Source: Patescibacteria group bacterium (GTDB taxonomy: Bacteria; Patescibacteriota; Patescibacteriia; Magasanikbacterales; GWA2-37-8). From it: a DNA stretch of 64,000 nt. The position numbers and the translations under genes were made by a program. Each line of letters starts with the position of its first letter. The stretch's first letter is position 1. The notes below the pieces were generated by a model. It was given only the letters and a program-made list of their open reading frames with translations, was not told where the DNA came from and did no database searches. The DNA lies in assembly GCA_041661385.1 (NCBI GenBank), contig JBAZUP010000002.1, positions 14,670 through 78,669 on the forward strand, given 5' to 3'. Shown one piece after another: positions 6,201 to 62,311 of this stretch.

Positions 6201-6226
6201 TGGCTTGAATAAGCCAAATTATACCA

Positions 6227-6255
6227 TTGACAAAAGTGCAAAAAAGGAGTATAAT
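6227..6255 (+). promoter_or_regulatory. Consensus sigma70-type promoter TTGACA-17 nt-TATAAT
   Basis: TTGACA at 6227-6232, 17-nt spacer, TATAAT at 6250-6255. It drives a ~115-nt leader and the ORF at 6373. Confidence 0.65.
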
Positions 6256-6372
6256 GTTATGTTTTGATAATTAGGGGTAGAAGTCACTTTTTCCTCTGAT
6301 TATCGAAGCAAAACGCTTTCGAGAAGTAGGCTTGTCCTACGCAGTTCTTTCCAACCCAAACCAGGAGAAACG

Positions 6373-14648: not shown

Positions 14649-14685
14649 GGCCATTCAAGGCCTCCTCCTTGGAGTTCACCAGTTC

Positions 14686-31871: not shown

Positions 31872-32041
31872 TTAATTTAAGAAATATATAGACATTTTCT
31901 ATAAGTAATTTTACATTTATATATGCAAAATAGCAACCCTAGCTTTGCTATATTTCGCTTGTAACTTACTTAACTTTAGCTGTGTATACTCTGTAAGGCG
32001 GCACATTGTTACATGCGCCTTTATTATTTAGCCAAGTTAGT

Positions 32042-32956
32042 ATGAAAAAAACAACAATGCTAACAGTAATGGTTGTTGCGTTTGCAGCTGGTATTGTGTT
32101 GCCGGCGATTGTAAATGCTCAGACAATTGGAAATCAAATTACTCTTATTCTAAAAAAAGAAAATATTAATCCGGTTGTGTTGGTATCGACTAATACAATT
32201 CCTACCGCCTCAACTACGGTCATTGTTCCGGCTTTGAAAGAGGCTGCTAAACCAAACACACAAAAGATCTCGCGCCTAGATCAGTTGGTCGCCAAACTTA
32301 AATTAAATACTATTAGCAATGAAGTTTTAGAATTACAAACTGGGTTAAAAAAACTTGGGTATTTTTCTGTAAATTTTAAGCCGACAAAAAAATATGGTCC
32401 AGCAACTGCCGCGGCAGTAAAAAAATATCAGGCTGATAAAAAATTGCCTCGTTTTGAGCAGTTGGTTTCTAGACTTCGGTCCGGAATGGTAAGTAATGAA
32501 GTTTTAGAATTACAAACAGGGTTAAAAAAACTTGGATATTTATCAAAAACTTTTAAACCTACAAATAAATATGGGTCGGCAACCGCTGTCGCCGTAAAAA
32601 AATATCTGGCAGATAAAAAGAAAAAAACGAACGTTTCGACTGCGGTAAAATCGCCGGCAATAAAAACTTCGGTTGTTGCAAAATCGGCGACAGTGGTAAA
32701 ACCCGCGACTGTTCCGGTCGTGCGAAGTTATACAATGGCAGAAGTTAGTGTAAATAACAGCGCTGCGAAATGTTGGTCAGCAATTAACGGCAAAGTTTAT
32801 AATCTTACTAATTTCTTTGGTAATCATGCTGGTGGGGATCCGGCGATTGCGTCGTTATGCGGTAAAGATGGTACAGTTTCTTTTGATGCTATGCATGGCG
32901 GAAAGGTGAAACCCGAAACGGTTCTAAAAACCTTTGAAATCGGATTGTTAAAATAA
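32042..32956 (+). CDS. Secreted protein with two peptidoglycan-binding (PG_binding_1-like) repeats and a C-terminal cytochrome b5-like heme-binding domain
   Basis: Signal peptide. Duplicated LELQTGLKKLGY...KYG.ATA.AVKKY modules. C-terminus YTMAEVSVNNSAAKCWSAINGKVYNLTNFFGNHAGG (b5-like H.GG). The track ORF starts at 32006. Confidence 0.6.
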   Translation: MKKTTMLTVMVVAFAAGIVLPAIVNAQTIGNQITLILKKENINPVVLVSTNTIPTASTTVIVPALKEAAKPNTQKISRLDQLVAKLKLNTISNEVLELQTGLKKLGYFSVNFKPTKKYGPATAAAVKKYQADKKLPRFEQLVSRLRSGMVSNEVLELQTGLKKLGYLSKTFKPTNKYGSATAVAVKKYLADKKKKTNVSTAVKSPAIKTSVVAKSATVVKPATVPVVRSYTMAEVSVNNSAAKCWSAINGKVYNLTNFFGNHAGGDPAIASLCGKDGTVSFDAMHGGKVKPETVLKTFEIGLLK

Positions 32957-44871: not shown

Positions 44872-44905
44872 TCAAAAAGACCAGTGAAGCTGGTCTTTTT
44901 TTATT
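44872..44905 (+). terminator. Intrinsic terminator after trxA
   Basis: AGACCAGTGAAGCTGGTCT followed by TTTTTTTATT. Confidence 0.7.
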
Positions 44906-45300
44906 CTCGCTATCCCCGCCTACAACGCTTTGCGTAGCAATGCGGGCAGGGCTCAATCAATTTTAAGTTTACCATATATTCAATTTTCCTTAGCCCTGCC
45001 GGCGGCATCACTTTTCATAACTGAAAAGTAATCAAAAGGTTCTGGGGGCCGGCAGAACTCGTCGTGCGAACTCCTCAAACAGCTGGCGGCCCCCAAACCC
45101 CCGTTGGGTAATTAGTTTGTCAGCTTCGATTCCGAGCATATGTGAAACGACTGCAAACTTCCCGGCGAAATTAGTTTTTTCAATGCGACTTTGTACTTTT
45201 GAAAAAATCGTTAAGATTGAGCCGAGGAATTTGCGGAGTGGAGCATCAGCTCGGCGCCTTTTGGGCTCCACCCGTTTTGGGCGCACAAAATGGGTGGAAT
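44906..45300 (+). repeat. Copy A of a ~395-bp GC-rich hairpin-dense repeat (candidate structured RNA element)
   Basis: Near-identical over ~200 nt to 52955-53160, then ~70% identical with indels. Contains at least 5 strong stem-loops. ORFs 45117-45302 (+) and 45032-45364 (-) inside it are probably artefacts. Confidence 0.7.
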
Positions 45301-45399
45301 AGACAAATGAATAATAGATAACTAAACTAAAAGAGCGGCAGTTAAAAAATATTGTAATAGACAAGCGAATAAGCTAGAATAGCGAAGCTATCTTTATAT

Positions 45400-46952: not shown

Positions 46953-49832
46953 ATGAATAAATACGACCCAAACAAAATTGAAGCCAAGTGGCAAAAGCAC
47001 TGGGAGAAAAACAAGACTTTTTGCGTTAAAGAAGATTCAAAGAAGAAAAAGTTTTATTCACTCATTGAATTTCCATACCCATCGGGTGAAGGTTTGCATG
47101 TCGGCCACCCCCGTCCCTTTACTGCCATGGACGTGATTTCGCGCAAACGACGCATGGATGGTTTTAATGTTTTGTATCCAATTGGCTTTGACGCGTTTGG
47201 ACTCCCAACCGAGAATCACGCTATCAAAACCAAACAGCAGCCCGCTGTAGTCACGAAAAAAAATATTGCCAACTTTACCCGCCAGCTCAAACTGCTCGGC
47301 TATAGTTTCGATTGGGACCGGGTGGTTGATACCACCGACCCGAAATATTTCAAATGGACCCAGTGGCTGTTTTTACAATTTTATAAACACGGACTAGCTT
47401 ACAAAAAAAATCAGCCTATTAACTGGTGCCCGAAAGATAAAATCGGCCTCGCAAATGAAGAAGTAGTAAATGGTTGCTGTGAACGTTGCGGTACCGCCGT
47501 CGAACAGCGCAACAAAGAACAGTGGATGCTCGCGATTACCAAATACGCCGAAAAATTACTTCAAGGTCTTAAAGAAGTTGACTACATTACTCCGGCCCGT
47601 GTCAGCCAAGAAAATTGGATTGGAAAAAGCGAAGGCGCGTTAGTTAATTTTGCTTTAGAGAATTCCGACGAAAAACTACAGGTCTTCACCACCCGGCCGG
47701 ATACTTTATTTGGTGCCACCTTTATGGCTGTCTCTGCTGAGCTTGCCAAGAGCTGGCTTGATAAGGGCTGGAAAGTAAGTAAGGAAATTGAAAAATATCT
47801 TGAAAAAACTTTATCCGAACAGAAAGTCCTCGACCGGGTAGAAAAAGAAAAGACCGGTATTGCGACCGATAAGTTTGCAATCAACCCCGTGAATGGAAAA
47901 AAGATTCCGGTTTGGATTACGAATTATGTTTTGGGTGGAGTTGGTACCGGCGCTATTATGGCCGTGCCCGCGCACGATGAAAGAGATTTTGAATTTGCCA
48001 AAAAGTTTGGATTGCCGATTACGCAGGTTGTAGCGCCATATTTTTACGATAGTAATAACCCGCCGCGCTCGGACAAAAAAACCGTCAAACGAATTAATAT
48101 TCAAGCCGTTGTAAAGCATTGGTCAGAAGACAAAGTAATTCAGATCCAATGGAAGGAGCAGCCCTGGAAAACTTTTGTCATCGGCGGAGCTGAAGCCGGT
48201 GAGAAGTTGGAAGACGCGGTAAAGCGGGAAGTGCTGGAAGAAACCGGATATAAAAATATCAAATCAATTAAACGAGTCGGAATGGAGCTTCGTTCGGAAT
48301 GGTTCGCCGCCCACAAAGATGAAAATCGTTATGCCAACATGAATGTTTTTGAGGTTGAACTTGCAGACGGAGAAAAAGACGAATTGTCCGCCGAAGAAAG
48401 TGAGAAGCACGTTGTCGCCTGGGTTCCTTACAAAGATATTCCGTCTTTTGCTGGAGTTGGGGAGCTGGCCTATATCTGGAAAGAATTAAATAATAAATCC
48501 GGTTGTTTTTGTGAAGACGGTGTTGCAATAAATTCCGGTGAATTTTCCGAATTGAAAACTGCCGAAACTAAAGAAAAAATGATTGCTTGGCTAGAAGAAA
48601 AGAAGATCGGCAAGCGCCAAGTAAATTATAAACTTCGCGATTGGGTATTTTCCCGTCAGCGCTATTGGGGTGAACCGATTCCGCTCGTTTATTGTGAAGC
48701 CTGCGCGAAAAATAAAAGGTTTGAAAGCAAGGGCGAAGAAATGAATCCAGGCTGGATTCCAGTTGAAGAAAAATCTCTGCCGCTCGAACTTCCAAAAGTT
48801 GATAAATATGAACCGACTGACACCGGCGAGTCGCCGCTCGCGCCAATGACAGATTGGGTAAATACTAAATGCCCGCGCTGTGGTGGAAAGGCGAGGCGTG
48901 AAACCGACACTATGCCAAACTGGGCTGGATCAAGTTGGTATTTCCTGCGTTACACCGACCCGCACAATGATAAAGCTTTCGCCGGTAAAGACGCGCTAAA
49001 ATATTGGATGAGTGTAGATTGGTACAACGGCGGCATGGAACATACTGTACTGCATCTTTTATATTCTCGTTTTTGGAATGAATTTTTATTTGATCTTGGA
49101 CTCGTGCCAACCAGTGAACCATATAAAAAGCGCACCAGCCATGGCATGATTCTCGGCCCCGATGGTGAAAAGATGAGTAAGAGCCGGGGTAATGTAATAA
49201 ACCCCGACGAAATGATTGAAAAGTTTGGTACGGATTCTTTTCGCACTTATATAATGTTCATGGGTCCGTTTGATCAGGCGGTAATGTGGGATACCAATGG
49301 GCTAGTCGGCGTCCGCCGTTTCCTCGAGCGAGTTTGGTTTTTACAAGAAAAAATTTCCGATAGTCCAGCGAGCGCAAACGCAATTTCAGTTTTGCATAGA
49401 ACCATTAAAAAAGTTGGCGAAGATATAGATACGATGCGATATAATACTGCAGTTGCCGCTCTCATGCAGCTCACCAACGATTTAATGAAAGAAGAAACTA
49501 TTGATAAAAATACTTACAAAATATTAATTCAATTGCTGTCGCCGTTTGCCCCGCACCTTTCCGAGGAACTCTGGGCAGAATATGGCGAAAAGGATTTGAC
49601 GTTTAGCGCTTGGCCGAAGTTTGATCCGGCACTAGCCAAATCCGCTACTTTTACCCTTGCCGTCCAAATCAATGGTAAGGTGCGCGATACGATCGAAGTC
49701 GACTCAGAGATAAGCGAAGCAGATGTAAAAGAATTGGTTTTGAAAAGTGAAAAGGTGCAGAAATGGCTGGAAGGCAAAGAGCCAAAGAAAATAATTTACA
49801 TTAAAGGCAAGCTTGCGAGTGTAGTAATATAG
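46953..49832 (+). CDS. leuS: Leucine--tRNA ligase with an internal Nudix-hydrolase domain insertion
   Basis: HVGHPRP (HIGH), KMSKS, CP1 editing domain (TTRPDTLFGATF, MAVPAHDERDFEFA), RDW..SRQRYWG.PIP. In addition a ~140-aa insertion at about aa 361-516 carries a perfect Nudix box GGAEAGEKLEDAVKREVLEETGY. Confidence 0.9.
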   Translation: MNKYDPNKIEAKWQKHWEKNKTFCVKEDSKKKKFYSLIEFPYPSGEGLHVGHPRPFTAMDVISRKRRMDGFNVLYPIGFDAFGLPTENHAIKTKQQPAVVTKKNIANFTRQLKLLGYSFDWDRVVDTTDPKYFKWTQWLFLQFYKHGLAYKKNQPINWCPKDKIGLANEEVVNGCCERCGTAVEQRNKEQWMLAITKYAEKLLQGLKEVDYITPARVSQENWIGKSEGALVNFALENSDEKLQVFTTRPDTLFGATFMAVSAELAKSWLDKGWKVSKEIEKYLEKTLSEQKVLDRVEKEKTGIATDKFAINPVNGKKIPVWITNYVLGGVGTGAIMAVPAHDERDFEFAKKFGLPITQVVAPYFYDSNNPPRSDKKTVKRINIQAVVKHWSEDKVIQIQWKEQPWKTFVIGGAEAGEKLEDAVKREVLEETGYKNIKSIKRVGMELRSEWFAAHKDENRYANMNVFEVELADGEKDELSAEESEKHVVAWVPYKDIPSFAGVGELAYIWKELNNKSGCFCEDGVAINSGEFSELKTAETKEKMIAWLEEKKIGKRQVNYKLRDWVFSRQRYWGEPIPLVYCEACAKNKRFESKGEEMNPGWIPVEEKSLPLELPKVDKYEPTDTGESPLAPMTDWVNTKCPRCGGKARRETDTMPNWAGSSWYFLRYTDPHNDKAFAGKDALKYWMSVDWYNGGMEHTVLHLLYSRFWNEFLFDLGLVPTSEPYKKRTSHGMILGPDGEKMSKSRGNVINPDEMIEKFGTDSFRTYIMFMGPFDQAVMWDTNGLVGVRRFLERVWFLQEKISDSPASANAISVLHRTIKKVGEDIDTMRYNTAVAALMQLTNDLMKEETIDKNTYKILIQLLSPFAPHLSEELWAEYGEKDLTFSAWPKFDPALAKSATFTLAVQINGKVRDTIEVDSEISEADVKELVLKSEKVQKWLEGKEPKKIIYIKGKLASVVI

Positions 49833-49835
49833 AAC

Positions 49836-51347
49836 ATGAGGGAGGGGATTGAAAAAATTCTAAATTCTAAAAGCAAGACGTTTCTCACGTTTTGCTTTTG
49901 TTTTATTGCGGGAAGCGCAATCGTCTCGGTTGCGGCAGTCAATATTTTTGTCTGGTATCTATATTATTTTATCTGCGCCTTGGTTTCCTTGTTAATACTT
50001 TTTTATAGTAACAAACTTTATCGATTTGTATTACTCGCGATAATATTTTTTTCGATTGGTATCTTGCGTTTTGCATTTTCAACTCCTGATTGCACACAAA
50101 GTAATAATGCTTGTTTTTATAATTCCCGATTGGTAAATGTAATTGGGTTTGTGTCCGCCGAGCCAAATGAAAAAGTTGGAGCGACCGAATATTATGTAAA
50201 TATCACACAAATTAAATTTGATAATTTAACAAATAATATTTCCGGCAAAATATTTATTAAAACCTCGCCCTATCCAAAATATCAATATGGCGACGAAATA
50301 CAAATAACTTGCAAACTTCAATCGCCGAAAGAATTGGACACTGGAGATTTTAGATATGATAAATATTTGGCCAGGTATGGAGCTTTCTCAGTTTGCTATC
50401 AACCCCAAATAAACAAGCTTGCTTCGGGCAAAGGTAATATTTTTCTTTCGGGTATTCTGACTTTTAAGAAAAATTTAAATGAACGTTTGAATAAACTATG
50501 GGTGGAGCCCGAGAGTTCGCTCATGGCCGGAGTTTTATATGGAGCTAAATCCGGCCTTCCACAATATTTGTCGGACGCCTTCAGTAAGACTGGCTTGTCG
50601 CACATTATTGCGGTTTCGGGTTATAACATTGCGATCATTGCCGTGGTCGCGATGCAGATTTTAATATATTTGGGATTTTACCGGCAAAAAGCTTTTTATC
50701 TGGTTTTGGTTTTAACCGTTGCGTTTGTTATTTTTTCCGGTATCTCAGCTTCCGCAATCCGGGCTGCCATCATGGGTGTGTTGGTGCTGGGCGCGCGGCA
50801 AGTGGGTCGGGGGAGCCGGATGATAAATGTGCTCGCCCTAACCGTTGCCCTCATGCAACTTGGGAATCCATATTTATTTTTTTGGGATGTTGGGTTTCAG
50901 CTGTCCTTCCTCGCGACGCTCGGGCTTGTATATTTGTCGCCGATTTTAAATTTAAGGCTGGAAAAAATTCCTCTTGCCGGTATCCGGGAGCCGTTCATTA
51001 CTACAATTTCGGCAATAGTTTTTACATTACCACTTATGCTCTATCAATTCGGAACCTTGTCATTTATCGCTCCGCTGGTAAATGTATTAGTTCTCTGGCT
51101 AGTTCCATATTTAATGCTTTTCGGCGCCGTTACCGTCGCTCTGTCTTTCATATTTTTTTCAATTGCTAAAATTGTAGCCGGCCTCACTTATTTTGGTTTA
51201 CATTATGTTATAATAGTTGTAGAATTTTTTGGGAAACAAGGTTGGGCCAGCGCCGCCGTCAATATTCCGCTTTGGCTCATGGTAGTGTTGTATATAGTTT
51301 TATTTTCATTTATAATCAAACAAAATGAAAAAAGTAAAAGTGTATGA
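49836..51347 (+). CDS. comEC: ComEC/Rec2 DNA-uptake channel, N-terminal (DUF4131-like) plus competence membrane domain only
   Basis: Polytopic membrane protein with the ComEC core (GLSHIIAVSGYNIAII...AIRAAIMG). It lacks the C-terminal metallo-beta-lactamase domain, which is encoded separately at 53361-54191. Confidence 0.8.
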   Translation: MREGIEKILNSKSKTFLTFCFCFIAGSAIVSVAAVNIFVWYLYYFICALVSLLILFYSNKLYRFVLLAIIFFSIGILRFAFSTPDCTQSNNACFYNSRLVNVIGFVSAEPNEKVGATEYYVNITQIKFDNLTNNISGKIFIKTSPYPKYQYGDEIQITCKLQSPKELDTGDFRYDKYLARYGAFSVCYQPQINKLASGKGNIFLSGILTFKKNLNERLNKLWVEPESSLMAGVLYGAKSGLPQYLSDAFSKTGLSHIIAVSGYNIAIIAVVAMQILIYLGFYRQKAFYLVLVLTVAFVIFSGISASAIRAAIMGVLVLGARQVGRGSRMINVLALTVALMQLGNPYLFFWDVGFQLSFLATLGLVYLSPILNLRLEKIPLAGIREPFITTISAIVFTLPLMLYQFGTLSFIAPLVNVLVLWLVPYLMLFGAVTVALSFIFFSIAKIVAGLTYFGLHYVIIVVEFFGKQGWASAAVNIPLWLMVVLYIVLFSFIIKQNEKSKSV

Positions 51348-51351
51348 ATCA

Positions 51352-51442: not shown

Positions 51443-52165
51443 TTATATTTTTTTAGCAACAGTTATGAGATGCCAAGCATTTATAAATGTGGATCCGTGT
51501 CCGACATAGTCATTTGAAATAATCTTTAGGTCGGCTTTTGAGATTAAAGATTTAATTTCTTCTTTGTGAAAGCAGTGAATGTATAAATTTTTTTTCTCTT
51601 CCCCAATCCATGAGTCATTTTTATCAAGAGATGGCAGTGATCTGCCTAACCAAAGATGCCAGAGTTTTTGTCGCGTGACAGAATGCCAGCATCGGACATT
51701 CCAATTGGCCATAAGAAGTTGCCCGCCAGGTGTCAACACGCGAGCAATTTCTTTAATTGCCTTCTGTCTTAATTCACTACTAGGGATATGGTGCAAAACA
51801 CCAAAACACAGAACAACATCGACTGATGCATCGGCAAGAGGGATATTCAAAACATCTCCCAACAATAGTTTTACGCGGATTGGGTTTGTACCCGTGTTAT
51901 GTTCTTTGATATAGAAATCTGCAGCCGCTAGCATTGTTTGTGAAATATCCTGGCCGATGTAATCTGTAATTTGTTTGTTGACTGCGGAAAAAGCGACGCC
52001 GTTACCACAACCTAGATCCAACAAACGATTTCCTTTACCATATTTATTCCATAGCTCTTTAAGTTGTTCTGGGGGTGTAATTCTGCTAGCGGCCCAATCT
52101 TTTGCCATTTTTTCATATATAATTGCATTTGACTTTAGAATAGCTTCAGCGATTTTCAAATCCAT
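51443..52165 (-). CDS. Class I SAM-dependent methyltransferase
   Basis: LDLGCGNGV motif I. 240 aa. Confidence 0.75.
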   Translation of the reverse strand: MDLKIAEAILKSNAIIYEKMAKDWAASRITPPEQLKELWNKYGKGNRLLDLGCGNGVAFSAVNKQITDYIGQDISQTMLAAADFYIKEHNTGTNPIRVKLLLGDVLNIPLADASVDVVLCFGVLHHIPSSELRQKAIKEIARVLTPGGQLLMANWNVRCWHSVTRQKLWHLWLGRSLPSLDKNDSWIGEEKKNLYIHCFHKEEIKSLISKADLKIISNDYVGHGSTFINAWHLITVAKKI

Positions 52166-52338
52166 ATGATTTATTTGATATGAAAGTTAATCAGAATTCA
52201 TTAAATGATTATTGTTACTACTATACCAGTTATTTTCTTCATAGTATAGTAATAGAATTTCATTAAAAATATGATATAATAATATTAGATATTTTGATAA
52301 AATAGTTAATGTAGTTATGTATAATTTCCACAAACAAA

Positions 52339-52944
52339 ATGAAAAAAGTAAAAGTATATGATTCGAGGGAGGGGTATAATCTCGCTGCGCACGAATATGA
52401 TAAGCGTGAAGCTTATCTTGGAAGTTTTGAAAAAAATCAACTCATCCCGTTGCTTGGAGATTTGAAGGGCAAGAAAGTTCTTGATGTGGGAGCGGGAACC
52501 GGCCGGTTATCGGTTTCATTTGCGAGACTAGGGGCAGGCGTTACCGCGCTCGACGTTTCGGAAACAATGCTTCAGGAATTATCAAAAAAGAACCGCAACA
52601 TTAAAACCGTAATCGGTGACGCGGAAAGTTTGCCTTTTGAAAACGAAGCATTTGATATTGTCGCCGCCGCTTTTCTTATTGTCCACTTGAAAGACCCGAC
52701 CAAATTTTTTGATGAAGCTTATCGCGTATTAAAGGACGGCGGAATTTTTTTAGTGACAAATATTAATCAAAAAGATCCGCCTAAGATCAAAGCCCACAAT
52801 CATGAGTTTGTGGTCGAATCGTTTTATCATCGCCCGGAGAAAATTAGGGAGATATTGGAATCTTTGGCGTTTGGAATAGAGAAAGAAGAGTTTATAAAAG
52901 AAAATGATGTTTGGATTAATCAAATAATTCTTGCTAGAAAATAG
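52339..52944 (+). CDS. Class I SAM-dependent methyltransferase
   Basis: VLDVGAGTGRLS motif I. 201 aa. Its promoter/5' end (TATAAT...CAAACAAAATGAAAAAAGTAAAAGT) is duplicated at the 3' end of comEC. Confidence 0.75.
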   Translation: MKKVKVYDSREGYNLAAHEYDKREAYLGSFEKNQLIPLLGDLKGKKVLDVGAGTGRLSVSFARLGAGVTALDVSETMLQELSKKNRNIKTVIGDAESLPFENEAFDIVAAAFLIVHLKDPTKFFDEAYRVLKDGGIFLVTNINQKDPPKIKAHNHEFVVESFYHRPEKIREILESLAFGIEKEEFIKENDVWINQIILARK

Positions 52945-52954
52945 TTTTACGCAT

Positions 52955-53350
52955 CTCGCTATCCCCGCCTGCAACGCTTTGCGTAGCAATGCGGGCAGGG
53001 CTCAATCAATTCAACACTTACCTTAATTCAATATTCCTTAGCCCTGCCGGCGGCATCACTTTTCATAACTGAAAAGTAATCAAAAGGTTCTGGGGGCCGG
53101 CAGAACTCGTTGCCGCGAGGCACCTCAAACAGCTGGCGGCCCCCAAACCCCGTTGGGTAATTGGTTGGTAAACAATTGGATTCCGAGCCTTTGTGGAACG
53201 AAAGCCAAATGTCCGGCGAAATTAGATTTTTTCAATGCGACCCTGCACTTTTGAAAAAATCGTTTTGATTTCGCCGAGACATTTGCCGAGTGAAGCATCT
53301 GCGAGGCAATTTTGGGGGCACACCTTTTGTTGCCAAAAGGGGTGTGGAAT
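52955..53350 (+). repeat. Copy B of the ~395-bp GC-rich hairpin-dense repeat
   Basis: Starts directly after the methyltransferase stop codon. Aligned to copy A in the text of the findings. Its last hairpin overlaps the putative RBS of the downstream ComEC-MBL gene. Confidence 0.7.
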
Positions 53351-53360
53351 AAAATGTTTT

Positions 53361-54191
53361 GTGACAAAAAACAAAATTTTAATAATCGCAATTATAATAA
53401 TCCTAGGGGGATTTTTTTATTTCCGCTATTCTGAAGCGGAACGCCACAAATTTAAGATTGTATTTTTAAATGTCGGCCAGGGTGATGCAACTGTAATACA
53501 ATTTGAAACTGGAGAAAAAATGTTGGTGGATTGTGGGCCTGATCGGGGGATTCTCTCGGCACTTGGTCGCAACCTGGCTTTTTACGACCGTACTATTGAT
53601 TACCTTTTAATCTCTCATCCCGATCTTGATCATTATGGCGGCTGTGTGGATGTTTTAAAAAATTATCAGATAAAAAAGATCTATATAAATGGACGGGAAA
53701 AAACCGACTCGTATTTTCGGGAGTGGAAAAGTGTGAGTACCGGATATTTAACTGAAATCGCCGGCGTCTCAACCACTCTCACCATTGCTTCATCGTCGTT
53801 CCGATTTTTTTCGCCGGACTTATCTTTGGTTTTTAAAAATAAAATATCCGATAATGATTATTCAATAATTTTTAAATTAAGCCATGGTAGCAGCAGTTAT
53901 TTGTTTACCGGCGACGCCGAAGAAACGCTGGAAAAATTATTAGTTGAAAAATATTGTCCGGAAGTAAATAATGCCTGTCCACTTCAGTCTGGTGTTTTGA
54001 AAGTTGGTCACCACGGTTCCGACGGATCTTCGAGTGAGTTATTTTTGTCGCGGGTGAAGCCAATTGAAGCTGTCATTTCGGTTGGCAAGAATAAATTCGG
54101 CCATCCGGGCCTGCGTGCCATCCGCCACCTTGAAAGAATTGGCGCGAAAATCAAACGGACTGATGAAAGCGGGGACATTTCTATAAAATGA
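53361..54191 (+). CDS. ComEC-type metallo-beta-lactamase-fold domain protein with an N-terminal TM anchor (detached C-terminal domain of ComEC)
   Basis: FLNVGQGDATVIQ ... ISHPDLDHYGG (HxHxDH) ... VGHHGS. GTG start at 53361. The in-frame ORF extending upstream to 53235 runs through repeat B and is not conserved with copy A at the protein level. Confidence 0.7.
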   Translation: MTKNKILIIAIIIILGGFFYFRYSEAERHKFKIVFLNVGQGDATVIQFETGEKMLVDCGPDRGILSALGRNLAFYDRTIDYLLISHPDLDHYGGCVDVLKNYQIKKIYINGREKTDSYFREWKSVSTGYLTEIAGVSTTLTIASSSFRFFSPDLSLVFKNKISDNDYSIIFKLSHGSSSYLFTGDAEETLEKLLVEKYCPEVNNACPLQSGVLKVGHHGSDGSSSELFLSRVKPIEAVISVGKNKFGHPGLRAIRHLERIGAKIKRTDESGDISIK

Positions 54192-54365: not shown

Positions 54366-54394
54366 TTGACAAAGTTGATAAAAAGGAGTATAAT
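54366..54394 (+). promoter_or_regulatory. Consensus promoter TTGACA-17-TATAAT, near-duplicate of the promoter at 6227
   Basis: TTGACAAAGTTGATAAAAAGGAGTATAAT vs TTGACAAAAGTGCAAAAAAGGAGTATAAT. Confidence 0.65.
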
Positions 54395-54399
54395 TCGAT

Positions 54400-54740
54400 G
54401 TTGTGACAGTACGGAATTAGCCATTTTTGGCTTATCTGGCTGACGATTTTGGCTTGTTTTGAGCCAAGGTCGGCAGCCGGATTTCCCGGCGCCACAACCA
54501 AAGGGGTCTTTAAAGACTCAAATGACGACCATCACCAGCTTCAGCTTTTCCCACGTTCACATCGATCGTCACACCGCGGGCGCCGTCGCGCCCTGACCCG
54601 TCGCCGCCGGCCGCCGAAGCCGACAGTTAGCGCCTGGTGCGCTACCTGACCGGTTAGGCCAACCAACTCCTCATGGAGGAGTCACATCGTGAAGATCACG
54701 AAGCCGAAGGTTCCGCTGTAGCGGATACAACCCCCAACAC
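54400..54740 (+). other. GC-rich (~58% GC) transcribed segment between the promoter and terminator with no convincing ORF: candidate non-coding RNA of unknown class
   Basis: Only ORFs are a TTG-initiated Arg-rich 66-aa frame without an SD, plus 24-aa and 10-aa fragments. Hallmark motifs of tmRNA (T-arm/CCA), RNase P (GGAAAGTCC) and SRP were looked for by eye and not found. Confidence 0.35.
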
Positions 54741-54778
54741 CGGGCGGCCGAGCAATCGGCCGCCCTCATCTTTTTTTG
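54740..54778 (+). terminator. Intrinsic terminator
   Basis: GGGCGGCCGAGCAATCGGCCGCCC followed by TCATCTTTTTTT. Confidence 0.7.
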
Positions 54779-60601: not shown

Positions 60602-62242
<1,641 letters not shown>

Positions 62243-62255
62243 GGTTGGCGGCATG

Positions 62256-62291
62256 CCTGCCCGCATTGCTACGCAAAGCGTTGCAGGCGGG
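62256..62291 (-). repeat. Isolated inverted copy of the 5' hairpin module of the 395-bp repeat
   Basis: CCTGCCCGCATTGCTACGCAAAGCGTTGCAGGCGGG is the reverse complement of CCCGCCTGCAACGCTTTGCGTAGCAATGCGGGCAGG at 52965-53000. The real groEL terminator hairpin follows at 62312-62345. Confidence 0.65.
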
Positions 62292-62311
62292 TACTAAAAA
62301 TTTTAAACTAA

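Follow-up and report, generated by a model that had tools for sequence, protein, structure and literature searches.

The question raised by this locus is what kind of element is represented by a hairpin-dense sequence of roughly 400 nt that occurs twice, as copies A and B, in a 64,000-nt stretch of DNA from a Patescibacteria group bacterium (GTDB Magasanikbacterales, GWA2-37-8; contig JBAZUP010000002.1 of assembly GCA_041661385.1, forward-strand positions 14,670 to 78,669), hereafter the window. A sequence-only reading had presented A and B as a candidate novel structured RNA, with a long cis-regulatory leader or riboswitch-like element, or a mobile structured RNA, as the main options. The interpretation that we favour, and which we regard as moderately probable, is that A and B represent a new family of internally palindromic, non-coding, non-autonomous mobile elements resembling MITEs (miniature inverted-repeat transposable elements), and that this family was secondarily invaded by a 36-nt mini-palindrome comparable to the repetitive extragenic palindromic (REP) sequences and the Rickettsia palindromic elements (RPEs). 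We prefer mobile DNA because the copies are dispersed over unrelated contexts, because relatives possess an empty spacer at one of the occupied sites, because the element has a sharp 5′ end and, in one copy, a terminal inverted repeat, because similarity among the copies is mosaic and because no promoter is conserved.

The two copies, both on the plus strand (Table 1), were readily recovered when A was compared with the 64-kb window by BLASTN (86% identity across 365 nt, E 2e-116), and in a MAFFT alignment their mean column identity is 91%. As previously described, A and B are almost identical in positions 1-207 and diverge thereafter with indels, though the identity of the 3′ part was measured at about 75-80% and not at the ~70% first estimated. 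Every motif that had been named, comprising the CAGGGCT/AGCCCTG stem, a hairpin, an imperfect helix and the terminal hairpins, is present in A as well as in B. The extent and number of the copies required revision, as A and B are real but the homology of A to a further family member (copy C) continues for ~40 nt past 45300, two more copies (C and L119) were found, and the 36-nt palindrome occurs by itself elsewhere in the window; the 3′ end of B is truncated or diverged and is devoid of the 3′ inverted-repeat motif discussed below. The claim that the copies are non-coding was upheld, as the open reading frames (ORFs) inside A and B differ by frameshifts and indels and have no Pfam match, while an exhaustive HMMER search of 1.84 billion representative proteins with a 110-aa minus-strand ORF returned that ORF only. 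Plasmid and phage collections did not contain the element, and viral contigs gave 0 matches to the core of the 36-mer and to three element patterns. Neither a known insertion sequence (IS) fragment nor a protein gene, the two identities by which the earlier proposal could have been overturned, was matched by Pfam, HMMER, plasmids or phages. An Rfam search of both copies yielded nothing at gathering score and, at E<=10, chance-level matches only, none of them in the core, in agreement with the view that no known RNA class is involved.

Additional members were sought in metagenomes, where a first pattern (AATCAAAAGGTTCTGGGGGCC) gave 0 matches and a second, CAATGCGACNNNNNACTTTTGAAAAAATCG, which represents a conserved block of the diverged half, led to two contigs, L119 and L120. 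The latter is the same locus as L121 and L122 and carries copy C, located between the rplA terminator and a dCMP-deaminase operon. Runs of protein accessions (MFA6105759/60/65 with MFA6106019, and MFA6490869/70/75 with MFA6490901) and a shared ENA sample assign copy C to the same metagenome-assembled genomes (MAGs) as the window; the idea that C derives from a distant lineage by horizontal transfer was therefore dropped, and A, B and C all lie inside ~104 kb of one MAG. The family is thus small, consisting of three copies in one Patescibacteria MAG plus L119 in another metagenome, and searches with nhmmer and with a covariance model of the 3′ domain retrieved no further member from ~950 kb of candidate phyla radiation (CPR) loci or from 40 kb more of the same genome, the one additional find being another solo 36-mer (L126:17913). 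Without later insertions the element measures ~380-405 nt, and in C it reaches up to ~510 nt. In copy C the 36-mer is a variant in which T16A is compensated by A26T, the loop of hairpin 1 is occupied by a 69-nt insertion seen in no other copy, and the interior of helix 2 is of another sequence yet of the same length and still capable of pairing; helix 2 and the terminal hairpin have been exchanged for other hairpins in some copies, and L119 finishes at its 3′ end with a terminator-like hairpin and a U-run.

The four copies are found between trxA and a gene for a HAD hydrolase (A), between a methyltransferase (MTase) gene and the gene for the metallo-beta-lactamase (MBL) domain of ComEC (B), between rplA and a small unit followed by the dCMP-deaminase operon (C), and next to a divergent gene (L119). 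The flanking genes of A, in the order trxA terminator, element, HAD, and of B, in the order MTase stop codon, element, ComEC MBL domain, had been correctly identified, yet the suggestion that homologues might always precede HAD, ComEC or other specific genes was answered in the negative by these unrelated neighbours, and outside the unit the flanks share no similarity. Relatives of the host differ by the presence or absence of the element at the C site: in L123 and L124 (ribosomal protein L1 87% identical) the spacer between rplA and the deaminase genes is just 78 nt long, the terminator abutting the operon promoter TTGACT-N17-TATACT, and in L125 (L1 90% identical) a 320-nt spacer contains a small promoter-terminator unit, and none of the three has the element, whereas in the window's genome the same spacer holds ~510 nt of it. 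The 5′ end of the element is sharp (T-CTCGCTATCGCT), coming straight after a terminator's T-run in the case of A and of C, and CTCGCTATC is invariant at the 5′ end of 4/4 copies. The ends of copy C, TCTCGCTATCGCT and AGCGATAACGAGA, constitute a 12/13 inverted repeat, ~510 nt apart, with one mismatch, and a repeat with <=2 errors was reached in only 56 of 2000 shuffles of C. L119 carries a related 3′ motif (AGCGACAACGACA), A a degenerate one (AGAGCGGCAG, 45332-45341) and B none.

Identity among the copies was found to be mosaic, A and B being 100% identical in the GC box and hairpin 1, A and L119 91% identical in helix 2, and A and C 97% identical in the terminal hairpin. Different pairs of copies are therefore near-identical in different segments, which points to recombination or gene conversion among them. 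The element was presumably dispersed by a trans-acting transposase with recognition of the terminal repeats, and it would land in T-rich sequence immediately past intrinsic terminators, at which insertions may be tolerated. The serial hairpins would be a property of palindromic elements at the level of DNA or single-stranded DNA (ssDNA), as opposed to being the mark of an RNA gene, and would owe their persistence to template switching, to gene conversion or to selection in favour of hairpin formation. Where the element is co-transcribed, as is presumably the case for copy B, for which no terminator is found between the MTase and ComEC MBL genes, it is expected to become a strongly folded RNA segment between cistrons, with a possible influence on the stability of the mRNA like that of ERIC, RUP and Correia elements.

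A review covers the general traits of prokaryotic MITEs (PMC10969869), and the element is small (<~600 bp), non-coding and present as several dispersed copies in unrelated contexts of one genome. Like the hairpin MITEs, represented by Correia/NEMIS of Neisseria, ERIC of enterobacteria and RUP/BOX of Streptococcus, it occurs as intergenic copies that are strongly self-complementary, with a terminal inverted repeat (clear in C), presence or absence between relatives and occasional location in operons as structured RNA (PMC10969869). Unlike these elements, it has no sequence similarity to any of them, is longer (~400 nt) and is composed of several serial hairpins, and it is known as four copies hosted by a Patescibacteria MAG, with imperfect target repeats and with no parent IS found.

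A number of observations weigh against a MITE-like origin. The terminal inverted repeat is clear in C only, and the flanking T-rich direct repeats are imperfect and were recognised by eye, with no statistics (TTTTTTATTT/TTTTTTGTGT at C and AATGTCTT/AATGTTTG at L119, none being clear for A and B). No transposase was encountered among the ORFs of the 64-kb window, nor was an autonomous IS with matching ends found there or among viral contigs, plasmids and phages. Just four copies are known, too few to demonstrate active mobility, segmental duplication and loss could mimic the observed distribution, and all copies are co-oriented with their flanking genes. The most conserved block, consisting of the long hairpin and its conserved internal loops, is internal and not terminal, and such a block fits an RNA or protein-binding function better than a simple MITE. 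Finally, the compensatory changes in the hairpins of the element are real and exceed those of shuffled and slid controls.

The latter changes are an argument for the strongest alternative, according to which a novel structured non-coding RNA, either trans-acting or mobile, would be encoded by a gene in several copies and expressed from the plus strand, the hairpins being its functional fold and the insertions being confined to tolerated peripheral loops. A and B fold far better than dinucleotide shuffles, with z scores of -6.1 and -5.4, respectively, on the plus strand and of -3.4 and -6.2 on the minus strand. RNAalifold analysis of an alignment of the four family sequences from which insertions had been removed (A4) predicted 87 pairs arranged as serial hairpins, and in the corresponding pair-count test 94.7% of the cells pair. 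Both sides have changed in 10 of the 87 pairs, as compared to a mean of 5.3 in shuffled alignments and 0-3 in slid controls, and 0 of 500 shuffles equalled the alignment in its count of double changes or in its covariation score, so that the claim of helices being preserved through changes on both sides was substantiated. The interior of helix 2 in C differs yet pairs, the outer stem of the terminal hairpin covaries, unpaired linkers such as TC(A/C)AAAGGTT are conserved in the family, the plus strand folds slightly better in 4/4 copies (by a minimum free energy gap of 1-12 kcal/mol), and the terminator-like hairpin with U-run of L119 and the co-orientation of the copies with neighbouring genes are likewise in keeping with an RNA gene.

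However, the helix test was based on four sequences, three of them belonging to one genome, and the structure had been deduced from the very sequences on which it was tested; furthermore, template switching during replication can create and maintain hairpins without selection at the RNA level (PMC8794818), for which reason conserved helices, taken in the earlier reading as the signature of a functional RNA, are by themselves no proof of one. There is no conserved sigma70-type promoter in or before the core and no conserved terminator, although canonical promoters are easily seen elsewhere in the genome, and A and C start 0-3 nt past strong terminators. The predicted fold is a string of long, near-perfect hairpins and not a compact, multi-branched RNA, and strand preference is not clear, G-U counts being similar on both strands and G-T versus A-C counts being 7 versus 2 in the long hairpin. 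The distribution is very narrow, the covariance model having come back empty from ~950 kb of other CPR DNA, and close relatives are without the element at the C site. Large bacterial non-coding RNAs and riboswitch leaders represented in Rfam (OLE, ROOL, GOLLD, raiA and T-box) resemble the element in being several hundred nt long, hairpin-rich and intergenic with some compensatory changes, whereas the element matches no Rfam family even at E<=10, has no conserved gene association, promoter or terminator, and combines its very narrow distribution with insertion polymorphism. We consider a dedicated RNA gene rather unlikely, albeit the most probable of the alternatives; with respect to the mobile structured RNA that had been offered as an option, a mobile structured element is indeed closest to the data, while the dedicated RNA is disfavoured by the missing promoter, terminator and strand asymmetry.

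A second alternative holds that the locus is a static local graveyard of independent small palindromic insertions, which segmental duplication or recombination would have carried to a small number of other sites. That small palindromes do accumulate in hairpin loops here is indicated by the 36-mer and the 69-nt insertion, the replacement of helix 2 and the terminal hairpin by other hairpins in some copies can be read in the same way, and other CPR genomes contain intergenic clusters of different hairpins (L054). Against this, no other hairpin of A and B was met a second time in the window, in a further 40 kb of the genome or in 113 CPR loci, 4/4 copies begin at one and the same sharp 5′ end, of which C has an inverted copy at its 3′ end, and the flanks outside the unit are dissimilar, which makes such an assemblage quite improbable.

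The proposed role as a long cis-regulatory leader or riboswitch of the downstream gene (HAD hydrolase, ComEC MBL domain or dCMP deaminase, possibly in connection with nucleotide salvage) was largely refuted by the empty sites in relatives. Its appeal lies in the orientation of the copies, which agrees with that of the downstream genes, and in the possibility that all three of these genes relate to DNA uptake or nucleotide salvage. In C, however, a separate promoter-terminator unit and the promoter of the operon itself intervene between the element and the dCMP deaminase gene, and relatives keep that operon promoter without the element; a sigma70-like promoter candidate is located between A and HAD; orthologues of HAD (<=67% identity) are non-syntenic, with no conserved neighbourhood and no upstream spacer of this kind; and no riboswitch model matches, leaving this reading with very little probability. 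The promoter-to-terminator unit beside copy C, ~190 nt in length (L121 11293-11482, same MAG), is conserved in L125 (~2090-2290) and absent in L123, matches no Rfam family at gathering score (as searched for L125) and is itself a candidate small RNA. The notion of a decayed protein-coding gene or IS fragment on either strand, suggested by short similar translations in A and B such as FSKVQ.RIEK (minus strand) and MR.CTFEKIV (plus strand), merits next to no credence, given that indels break the frames, that the Pfam, HMMER, plasmid and phage comparisons above are negative and that the peptide similarity is what 80% DNA identity yields. A group I intron in a hidden tRNA gene, an idea suggested by PMC13011429, was also rejected, as the flanks contain no tRNA halves and no intron model matches.

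Returning to the mobile-element interpretation, the element was itself invaded, by the 36-mer at position 10 of A, B and C, not of L119, and by the 69-nt insertion in C. The "identical module" with which A and B open had been treated as an integral part of the element, yet it corresponds to a 36-nt palindrome, CCCGCCTGCAACGCTTTGCGTAGCAATGCGGGCAGG, at positions 10-45 of A and B, of which the window contains three matches as against none expected by chance in a repeat search. L119 reads CTCGCTATCG|CTTAATCAA where A, B and C have the 36-mer and thus represents a precise 36-nt empty site; since L119 lacks exactly these 36 nt and since the core of the palindrome recurs at >=113 unrelated loci, the 36-mer was concluded to be a separate inserted element. 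Around the solo copy (window 62234-62300, minus strand) TACTAA flanks both sides of a block composed of GGTTGGCGGCATG and the 36-mer, suggesting a short duplication at insertion.

The census from which these loci originate was an exact search with the 26-nt core, with one genome per species, and the full 36-mer is identical in 87 among the matches listed. The flanks of the census loci are unrelated, only positions 10-45 of A and B being shared, and the titles of the records cover Saccharibacteria, lineages of Microgenomates (Gottesman-, Woese-, Roizman-, Levyi- and Blackburnbacteria), Berkelbacteria and lineages of Parcubacteria (Moran-, Nealson-, Portnoy-, Staskawicz-, Buchanan-, Komeili- and Magasanikbacteria, and Paceibacterota). 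A few bins are labelled as Gammaproteobacteria, Verrucomicrobiota or an archaeon; these labels are unconfirmed, and one such bin shares flanks with a Blackburnbacteria locus (L051/L060). In the window's own genome five copies, in both orientations, lie within ~104 kb. The palindrome forms a DNA hairpin of -11 to -12 kcal/mol, and variants have changed on both sides of the apical stem (TTGC/GCAA to ATGC/GCAT, TCGC/GCGA or GCGC/GCGC) around an invariant GCGTAGC, indicating that the hairpin itself is under constraint.

Sites occupied by the 36-mer have neither a target duplication nor a conserved flank, and several fall within the loop of another hairpin, which may be a further copy of the 36-mer (L030, L039, L038, L105, L027 and L044). 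Among the matches listed, 30 of 116 copies are located in ORFs that remain open for >=50 codons on both sides (for example L003, L013, L015, L018, L021, L026, L034, L052, L059, L072, L088, L092, L096 and L108), and 20 of these 30 share one frame, which lies on the opposite strand to that of the 36-mer as written and encodes PARIATQSVAGG or a peptide that departs from it by one or two residues. As five of the six frames are open, this bias argues for translation and selection and not for splicing, and the in-ORF copies imply, as predicted from the reading frames, 12-residue insertions in CPR proteins. A further group of copies is placed at the D-loop of a truncated tRNA gene duplicate, which retains the 5′ part (promoter region and tRNA nt 1 to ~30) and lies just upstream of the intact tRNA (L011, L014, L017, L024, L025, L031, L049, L057, L058, L068, L074, L081, L100, L106 and L110). 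Such a duplicated 5′ fragment accompanies 13 of 20 tRNAs with a 36-mer <=220 nt upstream as compared to 2 of 57 without one, and L102 shows the same pattern with a fragment of 5S rRNA and a 30-nt duplication. Interruption of functional tRNAs by the 36-mer was considered and discarded, as its deletion in silico restores no intact tRNA, the pieces being 5′ fragments beside intact genes.

One MAG labelled Verrucomicrobiota (~51% G+C) carries a variant 36-mer (CCCGCCCGCA...) whose position is constant within a longer repeat spanning a few hundred nt (L006, L033, L036, L053, L065, L080, L089, L095 and L099); the repeat is present on many contigs, with other hairpin variants alongside and a tRNA in at least one copy, and it provides a second case of a mini-palindrome within a bigger repeat. 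Public short-read contigs of the window's genome terminate at the 36-mer, inside it or where copy B begins (the end of the Logan contig L116 and the start of contig L131), and these repeats thus break assemblies.

The nested 36-mer would be a separate selfish palindrome of REP- or RPE-like character that may insert precisely, without target duplication, and with a preference for single-stranded loops. With the REP/REPIN sequences mobilised by REP-associated tyrosine transposases (RAYTs, which are IS200/IS605-like Y1 transposases), whose features were taken from PMC2817692 and PMC3116915, it has in common an imperfect palindrome (20-40 nt) that occurs many times per genome and in either orientation, insertion that is precise and leaves no target duplication, an invariant GTAG (here part of GCGTAGC) and covariation of the stem among variants. 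It differs in that REPs are extragenic and lineage-specific, whereas roughly one 36-mer in four is inside an ORF and the 26-nt core is the same in loci labelled as many CPR lineages, and in that GTAG is found 5′ of the palindrome in REPs and in the apical loop in the 36-mer. A RAYT (Y1 transposase) is not encoded in the 64-kb window, a statement limited to the window ORFs, beyond which no search aimed at RAYT was made.

RPEs are reportedly elements of 100-150 nt that lie in frame in protein-coding genes and also in RNA genes of Rickettsia, as ascribed to Ogata et al. 2000. Like RPEs and the GC clusters of yeast mitochondria, the 36-mer is a G+C-rich selfish palindrome in an A+T-richer, reduced genome, located inside protein and RNA genes, and the one strongly preferred frame (PARIATQSVAGG type, as above) is a further likeness to RPEs. 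It is distinguished from RPEs by its length of only 36 nt, by its occurrence in another phylum (Patescibacteria) and by an unrelated sequence, though no RPE consensus was compared, as well as by its association with partial 5′ tRNA duplications, a link not described for RPEs. RPEs are also mentioned in PMC1779305. A literature search returned no paper that contains the 36-mer sequence or describes such CPR palindromes.

A bolder proposal, which we put forward as speculative and on present evidence doubtful, is that the 36-mer represents a new kind of mobile element that is now spreading throughout the Patescibacteria, non-coding and identical across phylum-level lineages. It would insert with precision where loops are single-stranded, as in tRNA D-loops, in 5S rRNA, in other hairpins and in copies of itself, would be translated in frame and would have its insertion mechanistically coupled to short tandem target duplications. 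Were this true, a conserved trans-acting enzyme or an ssDNA- or competence-linked route shared by all CPR bacteria would be expected, and the ~400-nt element would be one of several larger repeats colonised by the 36-mer.

Table 1. Coordinates of the repeat copies, their hairpins and associated features in the window
Feature	Coordinates	Strand	Remarks
trxA intrinsic terminator	44874-44902	+	A begins 3 nt after its T-run
Copy A	44906-45343	+	44906-45300 is the core; 3′ boundary probably ~45343; nhmmer 436 bits; A-C homology
36-mer in copy A	44915-44950	+	one mismatch, G8A
Hairpin 1 of A, CACTTTTCATAACTGAAAAGT	45009-45029	+	53057-53077 in B; loop holds the 69-nt insertion in copy C
Helix 2 of A, GGGGGCCGGCAG...CTGGCGGCCCCC (GGGGG...CCCCC)	45042-45098	+	53090-53148 in B
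Long imperfect hairpin of A, ~57 bp	45132-45254	+	most conserved block of the family; invariant GATTTTTTCAA/TTGAAAAAATC helix
Terminal hairpin of A, CCACCC.../...GGGTGG	45268-45297	+	CACACC.../...GGTGTG in B (53319-53346); outer stem covaries in B and L119
Copy B	52955-53350	+	between MTase stop and likely GTG start (53361) of ComEC MBL-domain gene
36-mer in copy B	52964-52999	+	identical to consensus
Solo 36-mer	62256-62291	-	13 nt after groEL stop, upstream of groEL terminator

Several other features of the window were recorded. The ComEC gene surrounding copy B is split, with DUF4131 and Competence domains at 49836-51347 and the MBL domain in ORF 53235-54191; two methyltransferase genes (51443-52165, minus strand, and 52339-52944, plus strand) lie together with copy B between these halves, and a 34-nt direct repeat (51317-51350 and 52331-52364, 94%) brackets the first methyltransferase segment. 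A leucyl-tRNA synthetase (46953-49832, plus strand) has a NUDIX domain (residues ~402-496) inserted after its editing domain. At 54367-54778 (plus strand), in a 640-nt spacer, the promoter TTGACA-N17-TATAAT, which is 79% identical to one at 6221-6267 (plus strand), is followed by ~370 nt at 55% G+C and a strong terminator (~54742-54778); this unit has no Rfam match and could be a gene for a small RNA or a small protein. Lastly, a 128-nt direct repeat (32315-32442 and 32492-32619, 84% identical, 177 nt apart) is found inside ORF 32006-32956, which encodes PG_binding_1 and Cyt-b5 domains.

The result removes a tempting false lead, in that the repeat is read as neither a riboswitch nor a conserved RNA gene, and it adds a new hairpin-rich repeat family to the very sparse catalogue of mobile DNA in the ultra-small, reduced genomes of Patescibacteria. 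Novelty at the level of the family is modest, and the 36-mer is the more surprising object and worthy of its own study. If confirmed, the 36-mer would mark gene flow across the radiation and would account for breaks between contigs in MAG assemblies, two public contigs having their ends at the 36-mer or inside it; it would also give rise to 12-residue insertions in CPR proteins and provide a handle on an unknown mechanism of DNA insertion.

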